Source: Candidatus Helarchaeota archaeon
GTDB lineage: Archaea > Asgardarchaeota > Lokiarchaeia > Helarchaeales > RDOG01
Assembly: GCA_019058315.1 (NCBI GenBank)
Contig: JAHPZH010000001.1
Span: forward strand, 1,041,432-1,105,431
Length of the DNA: 64,000 nucleotides
Reading direction: 5' to 3'
This document shows, one piece after another, positions 8,425-63,636 of this stretch (the stretch's first letter is position 1; each line of letters begins with the position of its first letter). The position numbers and the translations under genes are program-made. The notes under the pieces were generated by a model, which was not told where the DNA came from, ran no database searches, and saw only the letters and a list, made by a program, of their open reading frames with translations.

Positions 8425-9938
8425 CTGACGAAACTTTAATAAAATTATTAAAGGATAAAAGAGAACAAATTAATAAGAAAGTTGATAAAGCTCAACAAAT
8501 GCAACCTGCATTTGATACTAAGGCGGTAAAATATGCTATTTTAAACGTTATGGAGCCTTTAATTAAAGCCATAAAAAAAATTCAACCCGAAAAAATTGAA
8601 TCTGTTTTTACTAATGTTTTTGATCTTTTACTTTATGCCATTAGCAAATATTATTATGCTCTTCCTGAAAACCAATTTACAAATATTAGGCTAGAAATGT
8701 TATTTGAAAAGATTTTACCTATGTTTCCAGAAATAATTATAGAAAAACCTACTAATTTTATTGGTAAATTATTCAATGCTGGTGAGCATCTTCGAGAAAA
8801 GTCTTCTAATTTTTATAGGGTTCTTATCGACATTTCTGATTATATAAAGTCTGACAATTTTACTGACTATGGACAAGTAGCTGCATGGGCTGTGGGAGAA
8901 ACTCGTCTTCGAAAAAATGCCCTTTCTATTCTTGAGAAATCTCCCCCTGGTTTAATTTTAAAATTGACAAGTTTAAATAATATTCCTAAATCAAAAGAAA
9001 AAAATATTACAACCTATATTATCGAGGCTTTAAAAAACGATAAATGGCGTTCAATCGAAAAACCTTTTTCAAGTAAATTTATAAAATTAATTCAAAATAA
9101 TCAAGAAATCCAAAAAAAAGTTATCGATGAAGAAATATCACAACCTAATCTCTTAAAAGAACGTCCCTTAGTTGTACTTGATGATGTCGGTAATTTTATA
9201 GGTTTTAAAGGGAATTTTAGTTCTCCTCCAAATCTAATTTGGGGATCAAATGGAACGATTATAGCATACACTGAAATAGGGGAGATTGTTTTTATTAATA
9301 TTGAAGGGAATGGATATCGAGAAAAAAGTATACGTCCTAGGGATGTTCGAGTGATAGGTTACAATCCGAGTGTAGGTTTTATTGGAATTAACCGAAAAGG
9401 ACAATTTGTGAACCTATCAAACTTGAAAATTTATTCCGAAAAGATTACAGGTACCAAAAAGTTCTTTGATTATTGTTATTCAATTTCAACTTCGGATTAT
9501 ATTTATTTCATACTTAAAGATAAAGAAATTTATAGATTAGATTCAGAGAATGTTAAAAAATTTGTTTTCAAAGGCAAGACCGATAATTTAACAGTGTCTA
9601 CAGACGATAGATTTTTCTTTATTAATATTGAAAAGACCGAAACAAAAAGATATAATTATAATCTTTCAGAACTATCATCAACAAGAAAATCTAAAAAAAT
9701 AATGAAAATAAAATCTAATGGTCTTCTTAGAGTGAATCCTCCTTATGTATATATTCTAGATGAACCAAATAAACTTTTAATTTATGATTTAAAGAATAAT
9801 TCCTTGGTAAAATCACAAAATTTGCCTCTAAAAATAACTAATTGTTCTTCATTTTTGATAAACGAAAGAGAAATTTATATAACTACAAAATTTAGTCATC
9901 ATATAATTTGTATCGGGTCAAATCCTTATTTATCTTAA
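8403..9938 (+). CDS. Hypothetical protein, helical N-terminal half and beta-rich (propeller-like) C-terminal half
   Basis: Overlaps the MoxR stop (coupled); start may be ATG 8412. Confidence 0.7.
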   Translation: MVGMAGLTDETLIKLLKDKREQINKKVDKAQQMQPAFDTKAVKYAILNVMEPLIKAIKKIQPEKIESVFTNVFDLLLYAISKYYYALPENQFTNIRLEMLFEKILPMFPEIIIEKPTNFIGKLFNAGEHLREKSSNFYRVLIDISDYIKSDNFTDYGQVAAWAVGETRLRKNALSILEKSPPGLILKLTSLNNIPKSKEKNITTYIIEALKNDKWRSIEKPFSSKFIKLIQNNQEIQKKVIDEEISQPNLLKERPLVVLDDVGNFIGFKGNFSSPPNLIWGSNGTIIAYTEIGEIVFINIEGNGYREKSIRPRDVRVIGYNPSVGFIGINRKGQFVNLSNLKIYSEKITGTKKFFDYCYSISTSDYIYFILKDKEIYRLDSENVKKFVFKGKTDNLTVSTDDRFFFINIEKTETKRYNYNLSELSSTRKSKKIMKIKSNGLLRVNPPYVYILDEPNKLLIYDLKNNSLVKSQNLPLKITNCSSFLINEREIYITTKFSHHIICIGSNPYLS

Positions 9939-9988
9939 GAGAAATTAATATAAATTCAAAGTTTAAGGATTTTTGAAGGTTATCATCT

Positions 9989-11746
9989 TTGGAAGCCAAA
10001 TTTGAAAAGATAAAGAAAAAATGGCTTGAAATCTGGCCTAAAGCTCTCCTCACTTGGTCAAGATATATTATTTTAAGAGAGCCTATATTTCTTTTTAATT
10101 TGAAAGAAGTAAAAAGAGTAGGCATGGGTGATAATATTGCAGCAGTATCAATGGCAGACTTGGGTATACATGTAAATCTCCCAAAAATCGTTAATCTTGG
10201 TTTGGAAGATTGTGGCCATATAATACTTGCCCATGAAATTGGACATCATGTTCTTTGTCCTAATAGTCTAGTGAATATGGCAAGGCTAGTAAATATAATG
10301 CAACCAGTTTTTGGGAATATTGAACAAACTAGGATGATGGAAAATCTATATGGAGATTTGTTAATTAATGATAGATTATATCTCTCGCGAAAGCTTCCGA
10401 TTCCTAATGTTTATAAGCTAATGATGAAAAATGATGCTACATTACATGCCGATTTACTTTGGAAATTTTATATGAGAGTATATGAAACAATGTGGTATTT
10501 ACCACGTGGAAGTTTGGCAGGGAAAAACATAACAAAAAATATGGATATGGATGCTGGTATAGCTACGAGGATAATACGAATTTTTGCAAATCGTTGGATG
10601 AGGGCAGCGAAAAAAATCGCATATGTATTTCAACCATATTTTCCGCCCCTTGAAAAAATGAAACAAGCTTTAATGCCTAATTTAGATACAGAAGTTCCAG
10701 GTGAAGGTGCGGAAGGAAAAATTTATGGTTTGACGCAGATAGATCAAGATGAACTTGATGCTGCAGCAGATGAGGGTCCCTTTCCAATAGATTTACCCTC
10801 TCTAGATGAAATAAAAGAAGCAGAAATTGCTGAAGCAAAGAATAAAGCAGGTAAACCAGGAGGAGGACAACATCGTACCCCTGCTCAATATGGTCAAATT
10901 CTCAAGAATATTGGATTAAAGCTTAAACCTAATGAGGAAATTATAAAATATTATAAAGAATTAGCTAGTCCAAATCTAATACCACTTCCTAAAGTTAAGC
11001 GACCCGGAGGTGGTGATGCTTATCCAGAGGCAACTGATATTTGGTATATTGGAGAAGAACATGAAAAACTCGATTGGCCTGCGACTATTTTTGAGTCTCC
11101 AATAATATTTCCAAATTTAACAACCAGAAAGAGAATGTGGGCAGAAGATAAAGGATCAAAACTAACTAAGATGCCTGTAGATCTTGATATTTACATCGAT
11201 AGTTCCGGAAGCATGCCAAATCCTAGAACTGCAGTATCTTATCTTACCCTAGCTGGTGTAATTCTTGCTTTAAGTGCATTAAGAGCGGGAGCGAAAGCTC
11301 AAGTCACTGTATGGAGCGGTTATGGGCAATTTGCAAGCACCCAAGGTAAAGGTGGTTTTATCAATGATGAAAAGATTCTTTTAACAATGCTGTGTAAATA
11401 TTTTGGTGATGGTACAGGGTTTCCATTAAATGTTCTTCGTAACACATATAATGAACGAAAACCTGAGGATCCACCTGCCCATATTATTGTTATTTCAGAT
11501 GATGGTGTTGATACAATGCTTTTAAACGATGAAAAGGGAAAATCAGGTAAAAAGATCTCACAAGAATCGCTTGATTCTGCTCGTGGTGGAGGTACTCTAC
11601 TTCTTAATCTTCCATCACAAGTAAACAGTTATTCAAGAATTTTAGATTTAAAAAAACTTGGTTATGAAATATATAGGGTAACAAATTGGAACCAACTTGT
11701 AGATTTTGCCCGAGATTTTTCTGTAAAAACATATGGAGATTTATAA
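9989..11746 (+). CDS. HEXXH metallopeptidase-like + vWA domain protein
   Basis: LAHEIGHH; MIDAS YIDSSGSM, GDGT, VISDDG. Confidence 0.85.
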   Translation: MEAKFEKIKKKWLEIWPKALLTWSRYIILREPIFLFNLKEVKRVGMGDNIAAVSMADLGIHVNLPKIVNLGLEDCGHIILAHEIGHHVLCPNSLVNMARLVNIMQPVFGNIEQTRMMENLYGDLLINDRLYLSRKLPIPNVYKLMMKNDATLHADLLWKFYMRVYETMWYLPRGSLAGKNITKNMDMDAGIATRIIRIFANRWMRAAKKIAYVFQPYFPPLEKMKQALMPNLDTEVPGEGAEGKIYGLTQIDQDELDAAADEGPFPIDLPSLDEIKEAEIAEAKNKAGKPGGGQHRTPAQYGQILKNIGLKLKPNEEIIKYYKELASPNLIPLPKVKRPGGGDAYPEATDIWYIGEEHEKLDWPATIFESPIIFPNLTTRKRMWAEDKGSKLTKMPVDLDIYIDSSGSMPNPRTAVSYLTLAGVILALSALRAGAKAQVTVWSGYGQFASTQGKGGFINDEKILLTMLCKYFGDGTGFPLNVLRNTYNERKPEDPPAHIIVISDDGVDTMLLNDEKGKSGKKISQESLDSARGGGTLLLNLPSQVNSYSRILDLKKLGYEIYRVTNWNQLVDFARDFSVKTYGDL

Positions 11747-12326
11747 GATGGAGAAAATTGAGTTAAAATTCCTGAAAGATGCAGTTTCACAGCTCCCTGA
11801 AGCATTTTCGCCCGAATCCTCTCCTGCTTTAGCTCATGATAATCTTATAGCAGTAAGTTATGATTTTTTAAATTATGAATTAGAAGTTCCAGCGAAACTT
11901 AAAAATTTTAAAAAAGTTTTTTCCCGTATCCCAAAAAATCAACGCGCAATTTATCTAATAGAAATAGGAATTCTTTCAAATAATGATGTTTTACCAATTT
12001 TTAAAGCTGCTATAAAAAAGAAATCAGTGGGTGACTTTTATATTATATCCTCAATAGCTGAGATAGCAAAAAGTTTAGCCGATATTGTTCCACCCGAAAA
12101 CTTCATTAGTGATCCTGAAAGGGCAGAAGAAATTGTGAGAAAACTTACTAAAACATTTGGAATTAAGATTGCAGGTGAAACTGAGTCAGAAAGTGAATCA
12201 AGACTTCTTCAAGTGGATTCTTTAGAGTTAAAAAATGTTAAAGATCAAATCGAGGCAAAAATTCGAAAAGCCCTTGAGGAAGCTCGAAGAAAAGCAAAAG
12301 CTGCTGCCAAAGTAACGAGAGAGTGA
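11733..12326 (+). CDS. Hypothetical helical protein of the MoxR-vWA cluster
   Basis: Overlaps or abuts the vWA stop; C-terminal coiled coil ending AAAKVTRE. Confidence 0.75.
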   Translation: MEIYKMEKIELKFLKDAVSQLPEAFSPESSPALAHDNLIAVSYDFLNYELEVPAKLKNFKKVFSRIPKNQRAIYLIEIGILSNNDVLPIFKAAIKKKSVGDFYIISSIAEIAKSLADIVPPENFISDPERAEEIVRKLTKTFGIKIAGETESESESRLLQVDSLELKNVKDQIEAKIRKALEEARRKAKAAAKVTRE

Positions 12327-57770: not shown

Positions 57771-58466
57771 TTGAAAAATATATTTGAACATATAGAAAAA
57801 ATTGCAAATATCCCTAGTATTCATCCTGAAGAAAAAAAAGTCCGTAATTTTATTATAAATGTTTTAAATTCCATGAAACGAGATTTCAAAATAGATGAAT
57901 TTGGGAATCTTTATTTGTTATCACAAGATAATTTTAAAATTTTACTCTCATCACATATGGATAAACAAGCGCCCCCATTTTTTAAAGATCTTGGGAAATA
58001 TATTCAAGGTAAACTTGATGATGCAGTAGGAATTGGGATAATTTTGAGCCTTGCACAACATTATGATTTTCCTGCTCTTTTTAGTGTAGGTGAAGAAAAA
58101 GGTTTAAAAGGTTCAAAATACGCTCTGAATAATAATCTAATCCCAAAAGTTGAAAGTGCAATTGTAATAGATACAAGTCCCTTTGGAGAACTCGGGAATG
58201 GTCCGATATTTTATACTTCTTTCGATAATAAGCAGCCATTTAACAAATTCTTAAATGAGATTTTTAATTCAGCAAAATTAATCAATGTAAATCTTCAACC
58301 TATGGATGGTTCTATCAATGATGGAGTCAATTTAATTAAAGTAATATCGGATACAGTTGCTTTGGAACCTCATATTGATAATTATCATACATCAGAAGAA
58401 ATTTCTGCAAAGATAGATATAATTAACACATATAAAGTAATAGAGCAATATTTAAAGAAAATTTAA
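57771..58466 (+). CDS. M20/M28/M42-family zinc peptidase-like protein
   Basis: SSHMD, GKLDDAVG, VGEEKG, VID, NYHTSEE. Confidence 0.85.
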   Translation: MKNIFEHIEKIANIPSIHPEEKKVRNFIINVLNSMKRDFKIDEFGNLYLLSQDNFKILLSSHMDKQAPPFFKDLGKYIQGKLDDAVGIGIILSLAQHYDFPALFSVGEEKGLKGSKYALNNNLIPKVESAIVIDTSPFGELGNGPIFYTSFDNKQPFNKFLNEIFNSAKLINVNLQPMDGSINDGVNLIKVISDTVALEPHIDNYHTSEEISAKIDIINTYKVIEQYLKKI

Positions 58467-59983
58467 AAAAAAGAGTATAAATCTTTTTTAATCGGTCTAT
58501 CTACTTTATCTTTTATATCTTTTAACTGAATAGATTCACCCATTTTTGGCAAAATAATATTTTTAAATTTATTTCTAAACTTTTCTATCCCCTTAGTATG
58601 TATAGGAATTATATACTTTGGACTTAAAGATTCTATGGTCCTAAAAATTTCTTCCTCACTCATATGGCCTGAAGTGTGAAGATAATGATAATCAAGATTA
58701 AAAAATTTAATCCATTGAAGGTGTCTCTTGAAATCTATTGCTTGCTCTTCATTAAAAGGTTCAGTTTCTGAATGTATATAAATCCCATTTGATGGTTTTA
58801 AATCTATTAAATTTCCTAACCGAAAATAATCCATTACCATAATAAATTTATCTAAATTATCTTTAACTTCATCAAATTTAACTACATTAGGAAAGTTAAG
58901 GAAATCTCGTTCCCATTTTGAATATTCACTCCGCCTAAAGCTGCCCATCTTTTTAGGTTCTTGATAAATCCTTAAATTATTATCTTCAAGCTTAATTCCC
59001 ATATCGTCACTTAAATCGTAAATATGTTGTGCTAGTTTTAATGGAATTACTAATTTTCTGCCACTATTTTTTGCTACATCATAAAAAGTTTTTAGTCGAT
59101 CAAAATCTCTTAAACTAAAATCTATAAAGACAGGATTATTAGTCTCTTGTACTATTCTTAATGCTTTTTCTTTAAGTATTTGTTCAGAATTAATTTTTTC
59201 TTCTAATGTCTTCCCCATCAATTCTTCAATAAGATTTTTTAGGAAATCTTCCTCAGTTTCATTTCCCACATTTGTTCCTTCTATTATTAAAATATCGATA
59301 TCTCGTTCTTCTAGTTTTTTTAAAGATTGTTTCGTAAGATAACCTCTCACTCCATGTTGTCTTAAATCTCCTGTATACACTATATTCATATCGCTCGCTT
59401 CTATGATATAACCACCCGCACCCCAAACTGAATGGTCTAGATCAAAAAAATCTACCTTTATTGTTCCATTATATTTATCCCAAGTATTAAACTCTCTTGA
59501 ACATTCTTCCCATTGCGAATGATGAATATTAAAACCGTAAGGTCTTTTCTTTAAGGAACAGAATTCACTTTCTATTCCCCCTTTGGAAATGGTTTCATAG
59601 CTTTCAATTATTTTAATAGTTAATTCTGATGCAAAAATCGGGACATCTTCTCTTATAAAGGGAATATATCCAAAATGATCCATATGTGGATGTGTAATAA
59701 AAACCCCTTTTATATCGGATTCGCCCTGTTCATGACCAGTTGGGCTTATTAAATCATCTCGATAAAGATAAGGTAGATTAGGAATAAGATTAAAAAATAG
59801 ATAATCACCAATTCCCTTTGAACTACGAGGTTTCAAATATTCAGCAAAAAATTTTCTTCGGTCTTCATATGAAACGCCAAAATCAAAAAACAAAGATTCT
59901 TCTGAATCTTTAATTAAAATCTTATTTCCTCCAATTTGATTTATTCCACCATAAAGAACTATTTCTGAAGTTAATATCTCCAT
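58463..59983 (-). CDS. Metallo-beta-lactamase beta-CASP nuclease (RNase J-like)
   Basis: GG.NQIGGN, FDFG, THPHMDH, DHS, YTGD, IEGT, HTSGH, IPIH. Confidence 0.88.
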   Translation of the reverse strand: MEILTSEIVLYGGINQIGGNKILIKDSEESLFFDFGVSYEDRRKFFAEYLKPRSSKGIGDYLFFNLIPNLPYLYRDDLISPTGHEQGESDIKGVFITHPHMDHFGYIPFIREDVPIFASELTIKIIESYETISKGGIESEFCSLKKRPYGFNIHHSQWEECSREFNTWDKYNGTIKVDFFDLDHSVWGAGGYIIEASDMNIVYTGDLRQHGVRGYLTKQSLKKLEERDIDILIIEGTNVGNETEEDFLKNLIEELMGKTLEEKINSEQILKEKALRIVQETNNPVFIDFSLRDFDRLKTFYDVAKNSGRKLVIPLKLAQHIYDLSDDMGIKLEDNNLRIYQEPKKMGSFRRSEYSKWERDFLNFPNVVKFDEVKDNLDKFIMVMDYFRLGNLIDLKPSNGIYIHSETEPFNEEQAIDFKRHLQWIKFFNLDYHYLHTSGHMSEEEIFRTIESLSPKYIIPIHTKGIEKFRNKFKNIILPKMGESIQLKDIKDKVDRPIKKDLYSFF

Positions 59984-60075
59984 CTCCTTGAAAACGATGA
60001 ATATATCTATATTCTTATTAAAAACATTTTAATTTTTTTTACTTAATAAAATTAATAAAATTTCTGAGCATTACA

Positions 60076-60906
60076 TTATTCCTTCTTTTTTATACTAAAC
60101 CCCTTAAAAGTAGGAAATCTTGCATGTCCAGATTTTTTTGAAATTTCCATAAATTTTACTTTTGCGAAGAAATTTCCCCATCCATAAGCTTTAACTAATA
60201 AATCCAATAATTCTTTATTTTTAAAAGAGAGTAAACCAACATCTCCTATTCGGGTTTGGATACTACCATAAGAATTTTCAGTTGTTTCATTCCATCCAAG
60301 CACTTCAACCTCTAAAAATTCTTCTTTTTTTACTTTTAACCAATTTTCACTTCTGATAAATTCATAAATACTATTCAAATTTTTAACGATTATTCCTTCT
60401 CCGCCTTGAGAAGTGATTTCTTTAAAGAGTTCCTTCGGATTACCAGATACCCCTATAGTCTTAAGCATATCATTTTTCTTTACAATTTCTTCTAAAGTCA
60501 ATCTTCTCTCTTTTAAAGTTTTTTTTGTTAAGTCTTCTCCATCTAACCAAAGGATATCAAAGGCAATGTATGTTGCAGGATATCTTTTACTCATTAAATT
60601 AATCTTAAACTCATTTATTAGATGATCTCTAGTTGCCAATAAACCAAAATCGTTATTAACAATTAGTTCTCCATCCAATATGCATTCGTTACAATTTAGC
60701 CAATTTTTAATATCATTGAATTCTGGAAATTGAATTAATTTCTTATTTTTATTTCTGTTTACCATTATTATGTCATCTGAAACAAAAAATAAAATGCGAG
60801 CACCATCATATTTATTTTCAGCTATCCAATTTGAATCAAGCTTTTCAATTTCTTCTATTTTCAATGTTTTACATAACATAGGTGAAATTTGATTATAATC
60901 AAACAA
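60076..60906 (-). CDS. Minimal ATP-dependent DNA ligase (adenylation + short OB domain)
   Basis: PML, ENKYDGAR, LDGEL, AFDIL, EGIIVK, WLKVK, RFP.F. Confidence 0.92.
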   Translation of the reverse strand: MFDYNQISPMLCKTLKIEEIEKLDSNWIAENKYDGARILFFVSDDIIMVNRNKNKKLIQFPEFNDIKNWLNCNECILDGELIVNNDFGLLATRDHLINEFKINLMSKRYPATYIAFDILWLDGEDLTKKTLKERRLTLEEIVKKNDMLKTIGVSGNPKELFKEITSQGGEGIIVKNLNSIYEFIRSENWLKVKKEEFLEVEVLGWNETTENSYGSIQTRIGDVGLLSFKNKELLDLLVKAYGWGNFFAKVKFMEISKKSGHARFPTFKGFSIKKKE

Positions 60907-60948
60907 AATTATTCACTAATACAAAAAAATTATGAAAAAAAGGGAAAA

Positions 60949-61740
60949 TTAACCTAATTTTTCAGATACTAATAAGGATTTCTCTAGTAAACTCTTCAGA
61001 TCTTCTGTCTTTGTTGCAACTGTTTCGATTTTTTCAATTTTTATTGGTTTTCCAGCTAATGTATCTTCGATTAATGTTTCTACTTTTTCTCTAAACTCAT
61101 CCACCAATTCATTTTCATCGATTTTTTTATCTGCCAGAGATTCTATTAATTTTAATCCGAGATCTATTTCGTCCTTGCTTAATTTTTCTTCTTTAAGTTC
61201 TGGAACTTGTACAATTTCATCTGGATAATAAAGGTTTATTAGGTTCAAAACATTTTTAAAAGGCTTAATAATACCCAAATGGGTCTTGTTCCTAACAGTA
61301 TACTTTACCAGTGCGCACCTACCGCTTTTTTCTAATGTTTCTCTAAACAATGTAAATGTTTTGGTATATTTTCCATCCGGGACCAAGTAATATTGACTAT
61401 CAAATCCTCTAGAATCAATATCTTCGATTTTTTTATATCCAAGAATTTCGATATTTTCTGTATTTAAATCTTCAATGTTTTTAAGGATTTCTTTATCAAA
61501 AACCAACATTTCATCTGCTACTTGATATCCCTTTTTAAATTCTTTATACTCATACTCTCTATTACAATCTGGGCAAAAATACTTATTTTTAATAGCATGT
61601 CCTTCTGAACAAACCCTTTTAAAACTTATAGATTTACTTCTTCTTAAGGTAACTGCCTTTACGGGTATATTTACCAATCCAAATTGCAAATTCACCGTAA
61701 ATAGTGCTTTAGCACCTTTAGTTTTAGCTTTTTTCGGCAT
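60949..61740 (-). CDS. ku: Prokaryotic-type Ku protein
   Basis: LQFGLVNIPVK, KGYQV, YYLVPD, LYYPDEI, DEFRE, DLKSLLEKSL; GGAGG upstream. Confidence 0.93.
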   Translation of the reverse strand: MPKKAKTKGAKALFTVNLQFGLVNIPVKAVTLRRSKSISFKRVCSEGHAIKNKYFCPDCNREYEYKEFKKGYQVADEMLVFDKEILKNIEDLNTENIEILGYKKIEDIDSRGFDSQYYLVPDGKYTKTFTLFRETLEKSGRCALVKYTVRNKTHLGIIKPFKNVLNLINLYYPDEIVQVPELKEEKLSKDEIDLGLKLIESLADKKIDENELVDEFREKVETLIEDTLAGKPIKIEKIETVATKTEDLKSLLEKSLLVSEKLG

Positions 61741-61858
61741 TTGTTTTCCTCCATTAAAAATTGATTTGAAAATTAAACATTATTAAGAGTTTTTACATGT
61801 TATTATAAAATTCTATCTTTAATTCTTATTTATTATTTATTTTTTTTAATATGAATTA

Positions 61859-62923
61859 CTATTTTTTGGCTTCTATGACTCTTTTACCAATTTTACAAAT
61901 TCTTTTTGCAATGTCTGATATTTTAGTTTCACTTAATGACTTTAACTTAGTTTTAAAAATGTCATTTATAGGTTCTTTCCACTTTTTAGGAATCCTTGAT
62001 TCACCAATAGATGTCCCTATAATAGCTCCTATGTTACCACAATTACAATCGGTATCGTAGCCACACATTCCAGCTATACAGATCGATTTACCCAAATCTC
62101 CATTTCCATAAAGTAGGGCAAGAATAATTATACCTATATTTGGCAAAACATGAACTCCATGAAGATTTTTATCTTGTAACATATTGAGCCGTTTGGGATC
62201 TTTAGCTTGTTTTATTAATTCATCTCTTGTTTCTTTCCAATATTTAATAATTTTCTCCCTTGCATCTCGCCAATTATCGTGTTGATTGTTTAATCTTATT
62301 GCTTTATCAATAAAACCAAAATATAAACTATTTTTAGGGATTGTTTTAATGGCAGCATCTATTAGTTTTTTTGGATCAGTCTCGTAAAATGCGGCAGAAA
62401 CGATTCTTGATATAAAAATTTCTCCAAGTATACCCTCTCCATTATGAGAAATTTCTGCATCCATCCTTCCATATTTTTCAGCAATATCTAGTTGCCCAGG
62501 AGCTATTAGTCCCCATATTTCACCTCTCATTTGTGCACCAATAAAATCTGAAAAAATGTTATTTTGAGCTCCAGAATCAGGTGGAAAGATCCCATTTTTT
62601 AAATTTTTAAAAGCCACATCCTCAGCGGTATACATATTTGTATATAATTCTTTTAACCACATTTCAGCAATATTTTTTGAGTTTAAACCAATTCCATATT
62701 TCTCGAGAGCCATCAAACCGACTATTTCAAACATTTCGTCATCATTAATAACACCCTTTCGATAAATTTTTACAAAATTATTAATTTCCCCATATTTTTT
62801 TTGAATAAATTTATAAGGGCGCATTTCTAGAGGCATTCCAAGGTAACTGCCTATACATTTACCATAAAATCCCCCATAAACTTTGTCATAATATATAGAA
62901 TCATCTAGTGGTTTTAAATTCAT
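61859..62923 (-). CDS. ADP-ribosylglycohydrolase family protein
   Basis: G..LG.P.E, NDDE, IGAQMRGE, SH.GEG, GYDTDCN. Confidence 0.88.
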   Translation of the reverse strand: MNLKPLDDSIYYDKVYGGFYGKCIGSYLGMPLEMRPYKFIQKKYGEINNFVKIYRKGVINDDEMFEIVGLMALEKYGIGLNSKNIAEMWLKELYTNMYTAEDVAFKNLKNGIFPPDSGAQNNIFSDFIGAQMRGEIWGLIAPGQLDIAEKYGRMDAEISHNGEGILGEIFISRIVSAAFYETDPKKLIDAAIKTIPKNSLYFGFIDKAIRLNNQHDNWRDAREKIIKYWKETRDELIKQAKDPKRLNMLQDKNLHGVHVLPNIGIIILALLYGNGDLGKSICIAGMCGYDTDCNCGNIGAIIGTSIGESRIPKKWKEPINDIFKTKLKSLSETKISDIAKRICKIGKRVIEAKK

Positions 62924-62970: not shown

Positions 62971-63636
62971 TTAGAGATTTTGTGAGGTATTTGCTTCCTC
63001 ATCAGCAACCTCAGTTAGAAGTGCTATATATGTTTTGTTTGCTGCTGACATTTTCGCTAATACACCTTTAAACATAGGACTGAATTCGGAATTAAATTCT
63101 GCCCAGATTTCATCAAAACGATTTTTAGATCCTTTTAATTTATCTTCAGCAACTTTATATTGAGATTCCTTTCCAGATAACTCTGTTTCTTTTTTTGGTA
63201 TCTTTTCGGTCTGGCCTTTTTCTTGCATTTTAGCTATATCTTTTTTTAAATCATTTACTTTATTTTTTAACTTTCTAGTTTCTTTTGCAAATGAATTTAA
63301 CTCTTTAATAGCATCATTTAATATTTCAGATTTCTCAACAATCTGTTTTAAAACCAGAACAACATTATTAGTTAAACTAGTAACTAGGGATTTTTGTCCA
63401 TCGATTAAAGTTTCATATTTTTGTGCAAGACCATAAGCAGGAGATTGTGTTTCATCTTCAGATGTTTTTTCTGCATAATCTTTTAATTTTTTAGCAATCT
63501 TCTTTAAGTGTTTCTCATATTTGCCATGGATATCGACTATTTCCTCATATTCGTTTTCTAAATCTTTAAAAATCTTGTGCATTTCATTTTCTACGTCTGC
63601 ACCTTTCTCAATCAACTCATCAAGATCGATTATCAA
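62971..63636 (-). CDS. All-helical protein with BAR-domain-like architecture
   Basis: 221 aa, three long amphipathic helices with a Lys-rich tip. Confidence 0.55.
   Translation of the reverse strand: MIIDLDELIEKGADVENEMHKIFKDLENEYEEIVDIHGKYEKHLKKIAKKLKDYAEKTSEDETQSPAYGLAQKYETLIDGQKSLVTSLTNNVVLVLKQIVEKSEILNDAIKELNSFAKETRKLKNKVNDLKKDIAKMQEKGQTEKIPKKETELSGKESQYKVAEDKLKGSKNRFDEIWAEFNSEFSPMFKGVLAKMSAANKTYIALLTEVADEEANTSQNL

Follow-up and report, generated by a model that had tools for sequence, protein, structure and literature searches.

A Ku-ligase gene pair between probably unrelated ADP-ribosylglycohydrolase and beta-CASP nuclease genes in an Asgard archaeon

The two-component NHEJ systems of bacteria and archaea pair a Ku homodimer with LigD, as in M. 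tuberculosis and B. subtilis (YkoV/YkoU), and include the arrangement of Methanocella paludicola, where Ku, Lig, Pol, and PE are split into separate genes. The locus described here is like these systems in that a single-domain Ku adjoins a LigD-type NTase-OB ligase, and its gene order, Ku then ligase, is that of other Asgard loci. It differs from them in that the genome has neither a Pol domain nor a Pol gene and its one PE-like ORF, 340 kb off, is sub-threshold, as well as in its shortened OB domain and highly divergent Ku sequence. Eukaryotic NHEJ, with Ku70/80, DNA ligase IV, and Artemis/SNM1C, employs the same three broad enzyme classes, which here lie side by side. However, the Ku at this locus is without the vWA and C-terminal domains, the ligase, which has neither a DNA-binding domain nor BRCT repeats, more closely resembles LigD and archaeal Lig, the nuclease is RNase J-like and bears a histidine in motif C, and the adjacency of these genes is not conserved.

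For the nuclease itself, the best match in both sequence and fold is the group comprising RNase J and the uncharacterized EF2904 (PDB 2AZ4), with which it shares a core of MBL and beta-CASP that has no KH domains, together with a motif of the HTSGH type, an RNase J-like feature. In contrast to RNase J, it is without the bacterial C-terminal domain, and its score against the RNase J family TIGR00649 (72.6 bits, or 73 when rounded) is far under the cut-off of 400 bits. The bacterial ligase-associated DNA damage response cluster (Lhr-core helicase, MPE endonuclease, ATP-dependent ligase, and MBL-fold exonuclease) also places a ligase beside an MBL-fold nuclease, whereas no Lhr or MPE gene is adjacent here, and at E<=0.01 the nuclease has no NCBIfam match to the exonuclease family of that cluster (presumably TIGR04122, which we take to be part of the NCBIfam library). 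To our knowledge, the ligase-associated cluster lacks Ku, which is present at this locus.

Layout and sequence context of the locus

Within the window, the whole 64,000-nucleotide stretch of DNA that was analyzed, ORF coordinates place four co-oriented genes on the minus strand, in agreement with the initial annotation. These encode an ADP-ribosylglycohydrolase (ARH; 61859..62923, 354 aa; PF03747, E 1e-44), Ku (60949..61740, 263 aa; PF02735, E 6e-37), a stand-alone minimal ATP-dependent DNA ligase (60076..60906, 276 aa, TTG start; PF01068, E 4e-33), and an RNase J/EF2904-like beta-CASP metallo-nuclease (58463..59983, 506 aa; PF12706 and RMMBL PF07521). The spacers, likewise read on the minus strand, measure 118 bp between ARH and Ku (61741..61858; AT-rich, with a TTTATAAT-like element and a GGAGG ribosome-binding site), 42 bp between Ku and the ligase (60907..60948), and 92 bp between the ligase and the nuclease (59984..60075; AT-rich, with TATA-like stretches and an AAGGAG ribosome-binding site), direct reading having reproduced the latter two lengths as previously given. 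The Ku-ligase spacer contains T8 and T7 runs at a position where the genes of most relatives overlap. Co-transcription of all four genes is possible, as they share a strand and are separated by only 42 to 118 bp; the promoter-like elements in the AT-rich ligase-nuclease spacer would also be compatible with the nuclease having its own promoter.

Both GC and GC3 of the region are native, no flanking repeats or tRNA genes occur around it, a viral-contig scan returned nothing for the Ku-ligase pair, and the locus has no mobile-element hallmarks. As far as its sequence can tell, the region is without any mark of foreign origin. The nearest homologues are encoded by MAGs of Hel-, Loki-, and Promethearchaeota, which fits the Asgard origin previously regarded as probable.

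The Ku-ligase pair

Ku scores 176.3 bits against TIGR02772 (Ku_bact), above the cut-off of 150, with positions 2 to 259 of 259 covered, and 127.8 bits against PF02735 (cut-off 25), the only domain found in the protein; the earlier caveat that this Ku looks bacterial-type was therefore well placed. A Pfam domain search found neither a vWA domain nor the Ku70/80 C-terminal arm or SAP domains in it, and the whole genome encodes a single Ku gene. Identity with eukaryotic Ku70 or Ku80 was rejected on the absence of the vWA and C-terminal domains and of a second Ku paralogue, and the protein is, judged from these domains, a predicted bacterial-type, homodimer-type Ku. Its relatives comprise one at 78% identity, with all others at or below 35%, and in the tree it occupies a long orphan branch of 2.3 substitutions per site. 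Ku is rare in the phylum: 8 of the 400 genomes sampled (2%) encode it, this one included.

The ligase is built of a nucleotidyltransferase domain and a trimmed OB domain. Among NCBIfam families, the NHEJ ligase domain TIGR02779 ranks first, with 133.6 bits (below the cut-off of 227.75), and the PDB relatives of the ligase include 1VS0, the ligase domain of M. tuberculosis LigD. In a full-length alignment with Ku-linked ligases from five further Asgard genomes, it retains motifs I, III, IIIa, IV, V, and VI, all of them invariant (K32-x-D-G, D78-G-E, F116-D, E170-G, L190-K-x-K, and R263-x-P-x-F). A ligase of the same type directly follows Ku in all seven other Ku-bearing Asgard genomes, with the two ORFs overlapping by 4 bp at six loci (L094, L095, L096, L098, L099, and L100) and lying 26 bp apart at the seventh (L097). 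Because this ligase type adjoins Ku in 7/7 other genomes, its six motifs are kept, and Ku exceeds the TIGR02772 cut-off, we regard Ku and the ligase as a conserved unit. The reading that we favor, with a probability of roughly two in three, is that the functional unit at this locus consists of Ku and a stand-alone LigD-type ATP-dependent ligase and that the neighboring ARH and beta-CASP genes are probably unrelated to it. The pair represents an old, compositionally native, and very divergent Ku lineage.

No LigD polymerase or phosphoesterase domain is encoded in the window, as the initial annotation had stated. It had also raised the prospect that such partners, encoded elsewhere, might complete a standard system, and no standard partners were found. 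A search of the whole genome (94% complete) for the LigD PrimPol at E<=0.01 gave no match to either TIGR02778 or PF21686, and the same models do detect the polymerase in another Asgard genome, G002. The sole PE-like ORF in the genome, ~340 kb away, encodes 142 aa and scores 23.4 bits against PF13298, which is sub-threshold (cut-off 31.1), and in a pairwise alignment it has an alanine opposite the arginine of the D-F-R motif of a bona fide Asgard PE. On the model of the homologous Ku/LigD of bacteria and archaea, the Ku homodimer would thread onto double-strand ends, hold them together, and recruit the ligase, which would self-adenylylate on its motif I lysine and seal compatible or minimally processed ends. 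As there is no LigD polymerase and no convincing PE, end cleaning and gap filling would either be skipped, which would confine the pair to clean ends, or fall to general enzymes.

The neighboring nuclease and ARH

The nuclease contains MBL motifs 1 to 4 (D, HxHxDH, H, and D) and beta-CASP motifs A (acidic), B (His), and C, and D34, H98/H100/D102/H103, H184, D206, E235, H436/H440, and H462 are invariant in an alignment of 20 beta-CASP sequences. Judged from these motifs, it is predicted to be catalytically intact. Motif C is a histidine (H462), invariant across the family and correctly read as such before; in the DNA-acting SNM1/Artemis/Pso2 nucleases this residue is reportedly valine rather than histidine (Callebaut et al. 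2002). The best PDB sequence match is 2AZ4, followed by RNase J, and Foldseek PDB matches of an AF2 model (pLDDT 88.8) are to 2AZ4, RNase J, and CPSF73, indicating an RNase J-like fold (TM-score about 0.6 to 0.7). SNM1 and Artemis structures are absent from the top 50 Foldseek PDB matches, which are of the 2AZ4, RNase J, and CPSF73 types only; an SNM1/Artemis/Pso2 identity was rejected on this basis together with H462. Both sequence and fold thus assign the protein to the RNase J lineage, contrary to the suggested relation to eukaryotic Artemis, and it is most likely an RNase J-type 5'-3' RNA exonuclease or endonuclease. One report describes strong DNase activity for the D. radiodurans RNase J DR_2417, a result that is contested (PMC6300522).

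This is the only copy in the genome of the RNase J/EF2904-like family, which 246 of 400 Asgard genomes encode and which is far commoner there than Ku. It belongs to an eight-member closest subclade, with seven or more relatives at 56 to 61% identity (P0005-P0011), that is distinct from the subclade of the copy encoded by G128, a genome of the same family. Because Ku has just the one relative at 78% and the rest at 35% or less, these beta-CASP relatives are without an orthologous Ku. The patchy phylogeny of the nuclease suggests transfer, and unnamed archaeal beta-CASP clusters with a patchy phylogeny pointing to transfer have been described (Phung et al. 2013; PMC3553952).

The ARH protein scores 153.7 bits against PF03747 (cut-off 26.2), matching profile positions 1 to 286 of 287. 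Orthologues at 45 to 54% identity occur as single copies in 89 of the 161 genomes of the class, nearly all of them without Ku; among them are 6/6 genomes of the same order that have no Ku. In the Ku-bearing comparison genomes, ARH lies on contigs other than the Ku contig. ARH is a conserved single-copy Asgard housekeeping gene. A rare protein, P0102, fuses a beta-CASP nuclease to an ARH; the similarity of its ARH half to the ARH described here is limited to a 22-residue motif, and its nuclease half is 23% identical to the present beta-CASP.

The initial annotation had treated all four genes as one NHEJ-like module in which the nuclease and ARH are linked to Ku, and neither gene proved to be so linked in the other genomes examined. 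No beta-CASP or ARH gene lies within 10 kb of Ku in any of the seven other Ku-bearing Asgard genomes, and 80 beta-CASP loci from archaea of other phyla have no Ku, no ARH, and one distant ligase. Linkage of beta-CASP to Ku is also absent from the sister-clade loci L007-L009. In the closed genome G002, the positions of Ku and the beta-CASP homologue are 1.52 and 0.89 Mb, respectively, while G271 has the Ku-ligase pair yet is missing from the set of genomes that match beta-CASP at E<=1e-20, and the ARH and beta-CASP homologues of one Lokiarchaeota MAG are on different contigs (locus tags 12440 and 17500). The recurrent neighbor of beta-CASP is instead an OB-HD (YhaM-like) gene, found at 22 of the 80 loci in four lineages. 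With three beta-CASP genes among roughly 5000 genes, the chance of one adjoining the pair is ~0.1%, a figure for a gene class that was picked post hoc. A conserved four-gene ARH-Ku-ligase-beta-CASP operon was rejected, as only Ku-ligase recurs (7/7 loci), in keeping with the earlier caution that the adjacency might be due to chance. What stands of the proposed module is its Ku-ligase core, paired in every Ku-bearing Asgard genome examined, and not the beta-CASP end processor or the ARH regulator; the position of ARH and beta-CASP beside the pair is lineage-specific and probably without functional meaning.

Alternative readings and implications

A lineage-specific, three-gene form of end joining, in which the RNase J-like beta-CASP was recruited as a DNA end trimmer, would replace the LigD PE and Pol and would make the nuclease a functional analogue, not a homologue, of Artemis, the Ku-ligase pair having settled beside it or the reverse. 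The nuclease is directly downstream of the ligase on the common strand at 92 bp, its motifs are intact, its subclade is distinct from that of the G128 copy, and its place beside such a pair, in a genome without Pol or a convincing PE, is suggestive; bacterial repair clusters that pair a ligase with an MBL-exonuclease also exist. We nonetheless consider recruitment unlikely, given that the linkage is kept in no comparator (the 7 Asgard Ku loci, the 80 beta-CASP loci, and L007-L009), that the fold and the motif C histidine point to an RNA-acting lineage, that the ligase-nuclease spacer holds promoter-like AT-rich elements, and that the sole copy of a family kept by most Ku-less Asgard genomes must also serve the general role of that family. 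Unlikely, too, is the reading in which the co-opted end trimmer of this one lineage would represent independent convergence on the eukaryotic Ku, ligase, and beta-CASP (Artemis) logic from a different beta-CASP branch. For ARH, a regulatory role in which it would strip Ku, the ligase, or DNA ends of ADP-ribose, in a manner reminiscent of the PARP/ARH3 control of break repair in eukaryotes, is strongly disfavored and appears very improbable: the gene is 118 bp upstream of Ku on the common strand, and the fusion P0102 exists, but orthologues are found in nearly exclusively Ku-less genomes (89/161 of the class) and never near Ku, and the two halves of P0102 have so little in common with the proteins encoded here.

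The pair itself could instead be a decaying or repurposed remnant that performs no chromosomal end joining, for example one that serves a mobile element or is under relaxed selection. The very long Ku branch, the trimmed OB domain and sub-cut-off score of the ligase, the T8 and T7 runs between genes that overlap in relatives, and the absence of Pol and of a convincing PE from the genome would all fit such decay. The Ku and ligase frames are intact, however, with every catalytic ligase motif kept; Ku still exceeds its equivalog cut-off, the relative at 78% implies a maintained lineage, and neither the locus nor the viral-contig scan offers a trace of a mobile element, which leaves a remnant improbable in our judgment.

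With the conserved Ku-ligase unit as the preferred reading, the proposed eukaryote-like module of four genes comes down to an ordinary pair of genes with probably unrelated neighbors, and an "Artemis-like" module is unsupported; the adjacent nuclease is nevertheless a candidate for preparing DNA ends for a Ku-ligase pair that is without Pol or a convincing PE. According to a preprint, a complete prokaryotic NHEJ set occurs in no Asgard archaeon (10.1101/2023.09.30.560322); the genome G002 encodes a complete Pol-Ku-Lig/PE operon. That operon represents one of at least three separate, scattered Ku-ligase lineages held by Asgard archaea. All of these lineages are bacterial-type, which argues against a special Asgard-to-eukaryote descent of Ku, ligase IV, and Artemis.

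The Ku-ligase pair and its setting

Four genes lying on the minus strand, which the initial annotation had proposed to form a single NHEJ-like module, were confirmed by ORF positions and profile matches: an ADP-ribosylglycohydrolase (ARH; 62923-61859, 354 aa; PF03747, E 1e-44), Ku (61740-60949, 263 aa; PF02735, E 6e-37), an ATP-dependent ligase (60906-60076, 276 aa with a TTG start; PF01068, E 4e-33), and a beta-CASP nuclease (59983-58463, 506 aa; PF12706 and RMMBL). Ku scores 176 bits against TIGR02772 (Ku_bact, cut-off 150). Among NCBIfam families, the ligase fits the NHEJ ligase domain TIGR02779 best, with 134 bits, short of the cut-off of 228. The window sits in a 1.48-Mb contig, part of a 94%-complete genome of 5.8 Mb and ~30% GC, and its nearest protein relatives are found in MAGs of Hel-, Loki-, and Promethearchaeota. 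The spacers of 118 bp (ARH-Ku), 42 bp (Ku-ligase), and 92 bp (ligase-beta-CASP) are all AT-rich. Both Ku and the nuclease have a good ribosome-binding site and TATA-like stretches upstream, and T8 and T7 runs come after the stop codon of Ku, but because the genome is 27-30% GC, these signals are weak evidence for or against co-transcription. Immediately upstream of ARH is a gene for a 221-aa all-helical coiled-coil protein without a family match (62971-63636, minus strand). On the other side, a short 231-aa M28/M42-type peptidase-like ORF (57771-58466, plus strand) converges on the beta-CASP gene, and their ends overlap by 4 bp.

Ku is single-copy in the source genome and present in 8 of 400 genomes of the phylum. 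Flanks of at most 10 kb were taken around the other seven Asgard Ku genes, and in all seven, the next gene after Ku is a short ATP-dependent ligase of the same kind, with ORF coordinates overlapping by 4 bp in six loci and separated by 26 bp in the seventh. The window ligase aligns over its full length with five of the Ku-linked Asgard ligases, retains motifs I, III, IIIa, IV, V, and VI, and has deletions confined to the OB domain. It is clear from these results that Ku and the ligase, both of them intact and the ligase with all its adenylyltransferase motifs, are a real unit whose pairing is conserved. This core of the proposed module therefore stands, but the membership of the beta-CASP nuclease and ARH does not, the four-gene adjacency being found in the source genome alone among all comparators.

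Partners and origin of the pair

Bacterial Ku and ligase usually work with the polymerase (Pol, or PrimPol) and 3'-phosphoesterase (PE) domains of LigD. No match to LigD polymerase was detected anywhere in the 94%-complete genome, and the sole PE-like ORF, encoding 142 aa, lies ~340 kb away, outside the window (G000:C3:1439830-1440258; L139:1387-1815, minus strand). Its score of 23 bits falls short of the cut-off of 31, and Ala stands opposite the Arg of the D-F-R motif in its alignment with a bona fide Asgard PE. The ORF may encode a PE that is degenerate or very divergent. Other Asgard Ku loci have different partners. The closed genome G002, from another family, carries a complete canonical Pol-Ku-Lig/PE operon, with LigD PrimPol, Ku, and a ligase-PE fusion in that order (L099, G002:C1:1514000-1533999; ORFs 8805-9728, 9673-10530, and 10527-11921), which contradicts a preprint statement that no Asgard archaeon has a full prokaryotic NHEJ set (10.1101/2023.09.30.560322). 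A stand-alone, divergently oriented LigD PE gene lies beside Ku-ligase in another Ku-bearing Asgard genome (G271, locus L098). In four related genomes (G275, G277, G163, and G273; loci L094-L097), a divergently oriented ORF of ~170-176 aa is found immediately upstream of Ku. The two of these ORFs that were scanned (L094 and L095) both encode TPR proteins, and this ORF may be a conserved accessory factor.

The window Ku has one relative at 78% identity (P0124), on a 1.1-kb contig, and all of its remaining relatives are at or below 35%. In a maximum-likelihood tree, these two proteins share a branch of 2.3 substitutions per site, separate both from a monophyletic clade of five Asgard Ku proteins and from the Ku of G002; as this tree came from a quick search and long branches make the placement unsafe, it is with that caveat that we recognize at least three Ku lineages in Asgard archaea, every one of them single-domain and prokaryotic in type. 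All four genes have genome-typical GC and GC3, and neither flanking repeats nor tRNA genes were found, so that none of these features points to an island and the pair is no recent arrival. Scans of viral contigs gave no relative of Ku and, for beta-CASP, distant matches alone (20-33% identity), and the idea of a viral or mobile origin was abandoned. A search of 161 genomes across the class found no close relative, and synteny with six genomes of the same order is almost nil, precluding the reconstruction of an insertion site.

The beta-CASP nuclease and ARH as neighbors

The nuclease belongs near RNase J. Its catalytic residues (D34, HxHxDH at 98-103, H184, D206, E235, H436/H440, and H462) are invariant in a 20-sequence alignment. 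With the RNase J family TIGR00649, its score is 73 bits (cut-off 400). The nearest solved structure by sequence is 2AZ4 (Enterococcus faecalis EF2904), followed by RNase J enzymes, and Foldseek searches with an AlphaFold2 model (pLDDT 88.8) returned 2AZ4, then bacterial and archaeal RNase J, then CPSF73 and aCPSF1, with no SNM1/Artemis structure among the top 50 matches. By analogy with these structural relatives, RNA is the most likely substrate of the nuclease, which would cut it as a 5'-3' exonuclease or endonuclease; a role on DNA is conceivable, as DNase activity has been reported, though contested, for one bacterial RNase J (PMC6300522). The two further beta-CASP genes of the genome are aCPSF1-like and aCPSF2-like, which leaves the window gene as its only RNase J-like copy; it was also the sole match in the genome when the copy from a same-family genome was used as the query. 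Phylogenetically, it groups with good support with seven Hel-/Loki-type proteins from metagenomes (P0005-P0011; 56-61% identity), among them P0005 of a Helarchaeota MAG (82 kb) and P0010 of a Lokiarchaeota MAG (22 kb). The sister clade is made up of Hadarchaeales, Hodarchaeaceae, and Halobacteria-MAG sequences. A metagenome scan with the nuclease gave a single match, at 29% identity. Phung et al. (PMC3553952) set aside archaeal beta-CASP clusters that are unnamed and not monophyletic, and this family probably corresponds to one of them.

The RNase J-like beta-CASP family is found in 246 of 400 Asgard genomes (E<=1e-20), and a scan of the genome collection confirmed at least 565 beta-CASP loci, the best 80 of which were kept for a survey of neighbors. 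These come from Thermoplasmatota, Nitrosopumilales, Bathyarchaeia, Altiarchaeota, DPANN lineages, and a few bacterial MAGs. Neither Ku nor ARH occurs within 10 kb of the nuclease in any of these best 80 loci, and over the same span, a ligase was found once, 4 kb away. The sister-clade loci (L007-L009) are likewise without Ku, ligase, or ARH, and since the Ku search gave no match above 35% identity except on one short contig, the seven closest nuclease relatives lack an orthologous Ku. In the closed genome G002, 630 kb separate Ku from the beta-CASP homolog, and G271 has Ku-ligase yet is not among the genomes with a beta-CASP family match at E<=1e-20. The expected linkage of the nuclease to Ku elsewhere is thus not borne out, and recruitment of an RNase J-like nuclease to Ku-ligase in this lineage alone, to which the adjacency in the source genome would correspond, seems improbable. 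A different neighbor recurs: an OB-fold and HD-domain (YhaM-like) gene lies directly downstream of the nuclease in 22 of the best 80 loci (L011, L014, L019, L021, L022, L024, L027, L084, L086, and others), in Thermoplasmatota, Altiarchaeota, Methanobacteriaceae, and Methanomicrobiales. This arrangement recalls the exonuclease pair RNase J and YhaM of Bacillus, and it is possible that the EF2904/RNase J-like beta-CASP and OB-HD proteins are a putative two-exonuclease pair. XPD helicase was rejected as a general partner of the nuclease because its synteny is limited to Thermoplasmatota.

ARH is similarly independent of Ku. Its orthologs are single-copy in 89 of 161 class genomes (45-54% identity) and present in all six same-order genomes, none of which has Ku, and in each of the six Ku-bearing genomes of the class, ARH and Ku are on different contigs, contrary to the linkage that had been anticipated. 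One ARH relative (P0222) is 84% identical. The ARH and beta-CASP homologs of one Lokiarchaeota MAG are on separate contigs, at locus tags 12440 and 17500. A 765-aa protein on a 3.4-kb Logan contig (P0102) fuses a beta-CASP nuclease (residues 1-420) to a full ARH domain (463-742). Its ARH half has no more than a 22-residue motif in common with the window ARH and its nuclease half is 23% identical, and it was rejected as a Rosetta-stone link, as each half belongs to another subfamily; it says little about the window locus.

Proposed end joining by Ku and ligase

The initial annotation had also likened the locus to eukaryotic NHEJ. In contrast to that system, the window Ku has neither the vWA nor the C-terminal domains, the ligase resembles LigD, and the nuclease comes from the RNase J branch; with an adjacency that is also unique among all comparators, the arrangement is not the eukaryotic one. 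The bacterial ligase-associated damage-response cluster likewise combines a ligase with an MBL exonuclease, but the window nuclease has no match to that exonuclease family at E<=0.01. The closest known system is bacterial and archaeal Ku with LigD in its split form, pared here to Ku and ligase. By homology, a Ku homodimer would bind and bridge DNA ends and bring in the ligase, which would then seal the ends held by Ku. With no Pol or PE partner, such a system would be limited to clean ends or dependent on general enzymes, and a recent study reports that archaeal replicative primase can mediate break repair (PMC12019639).
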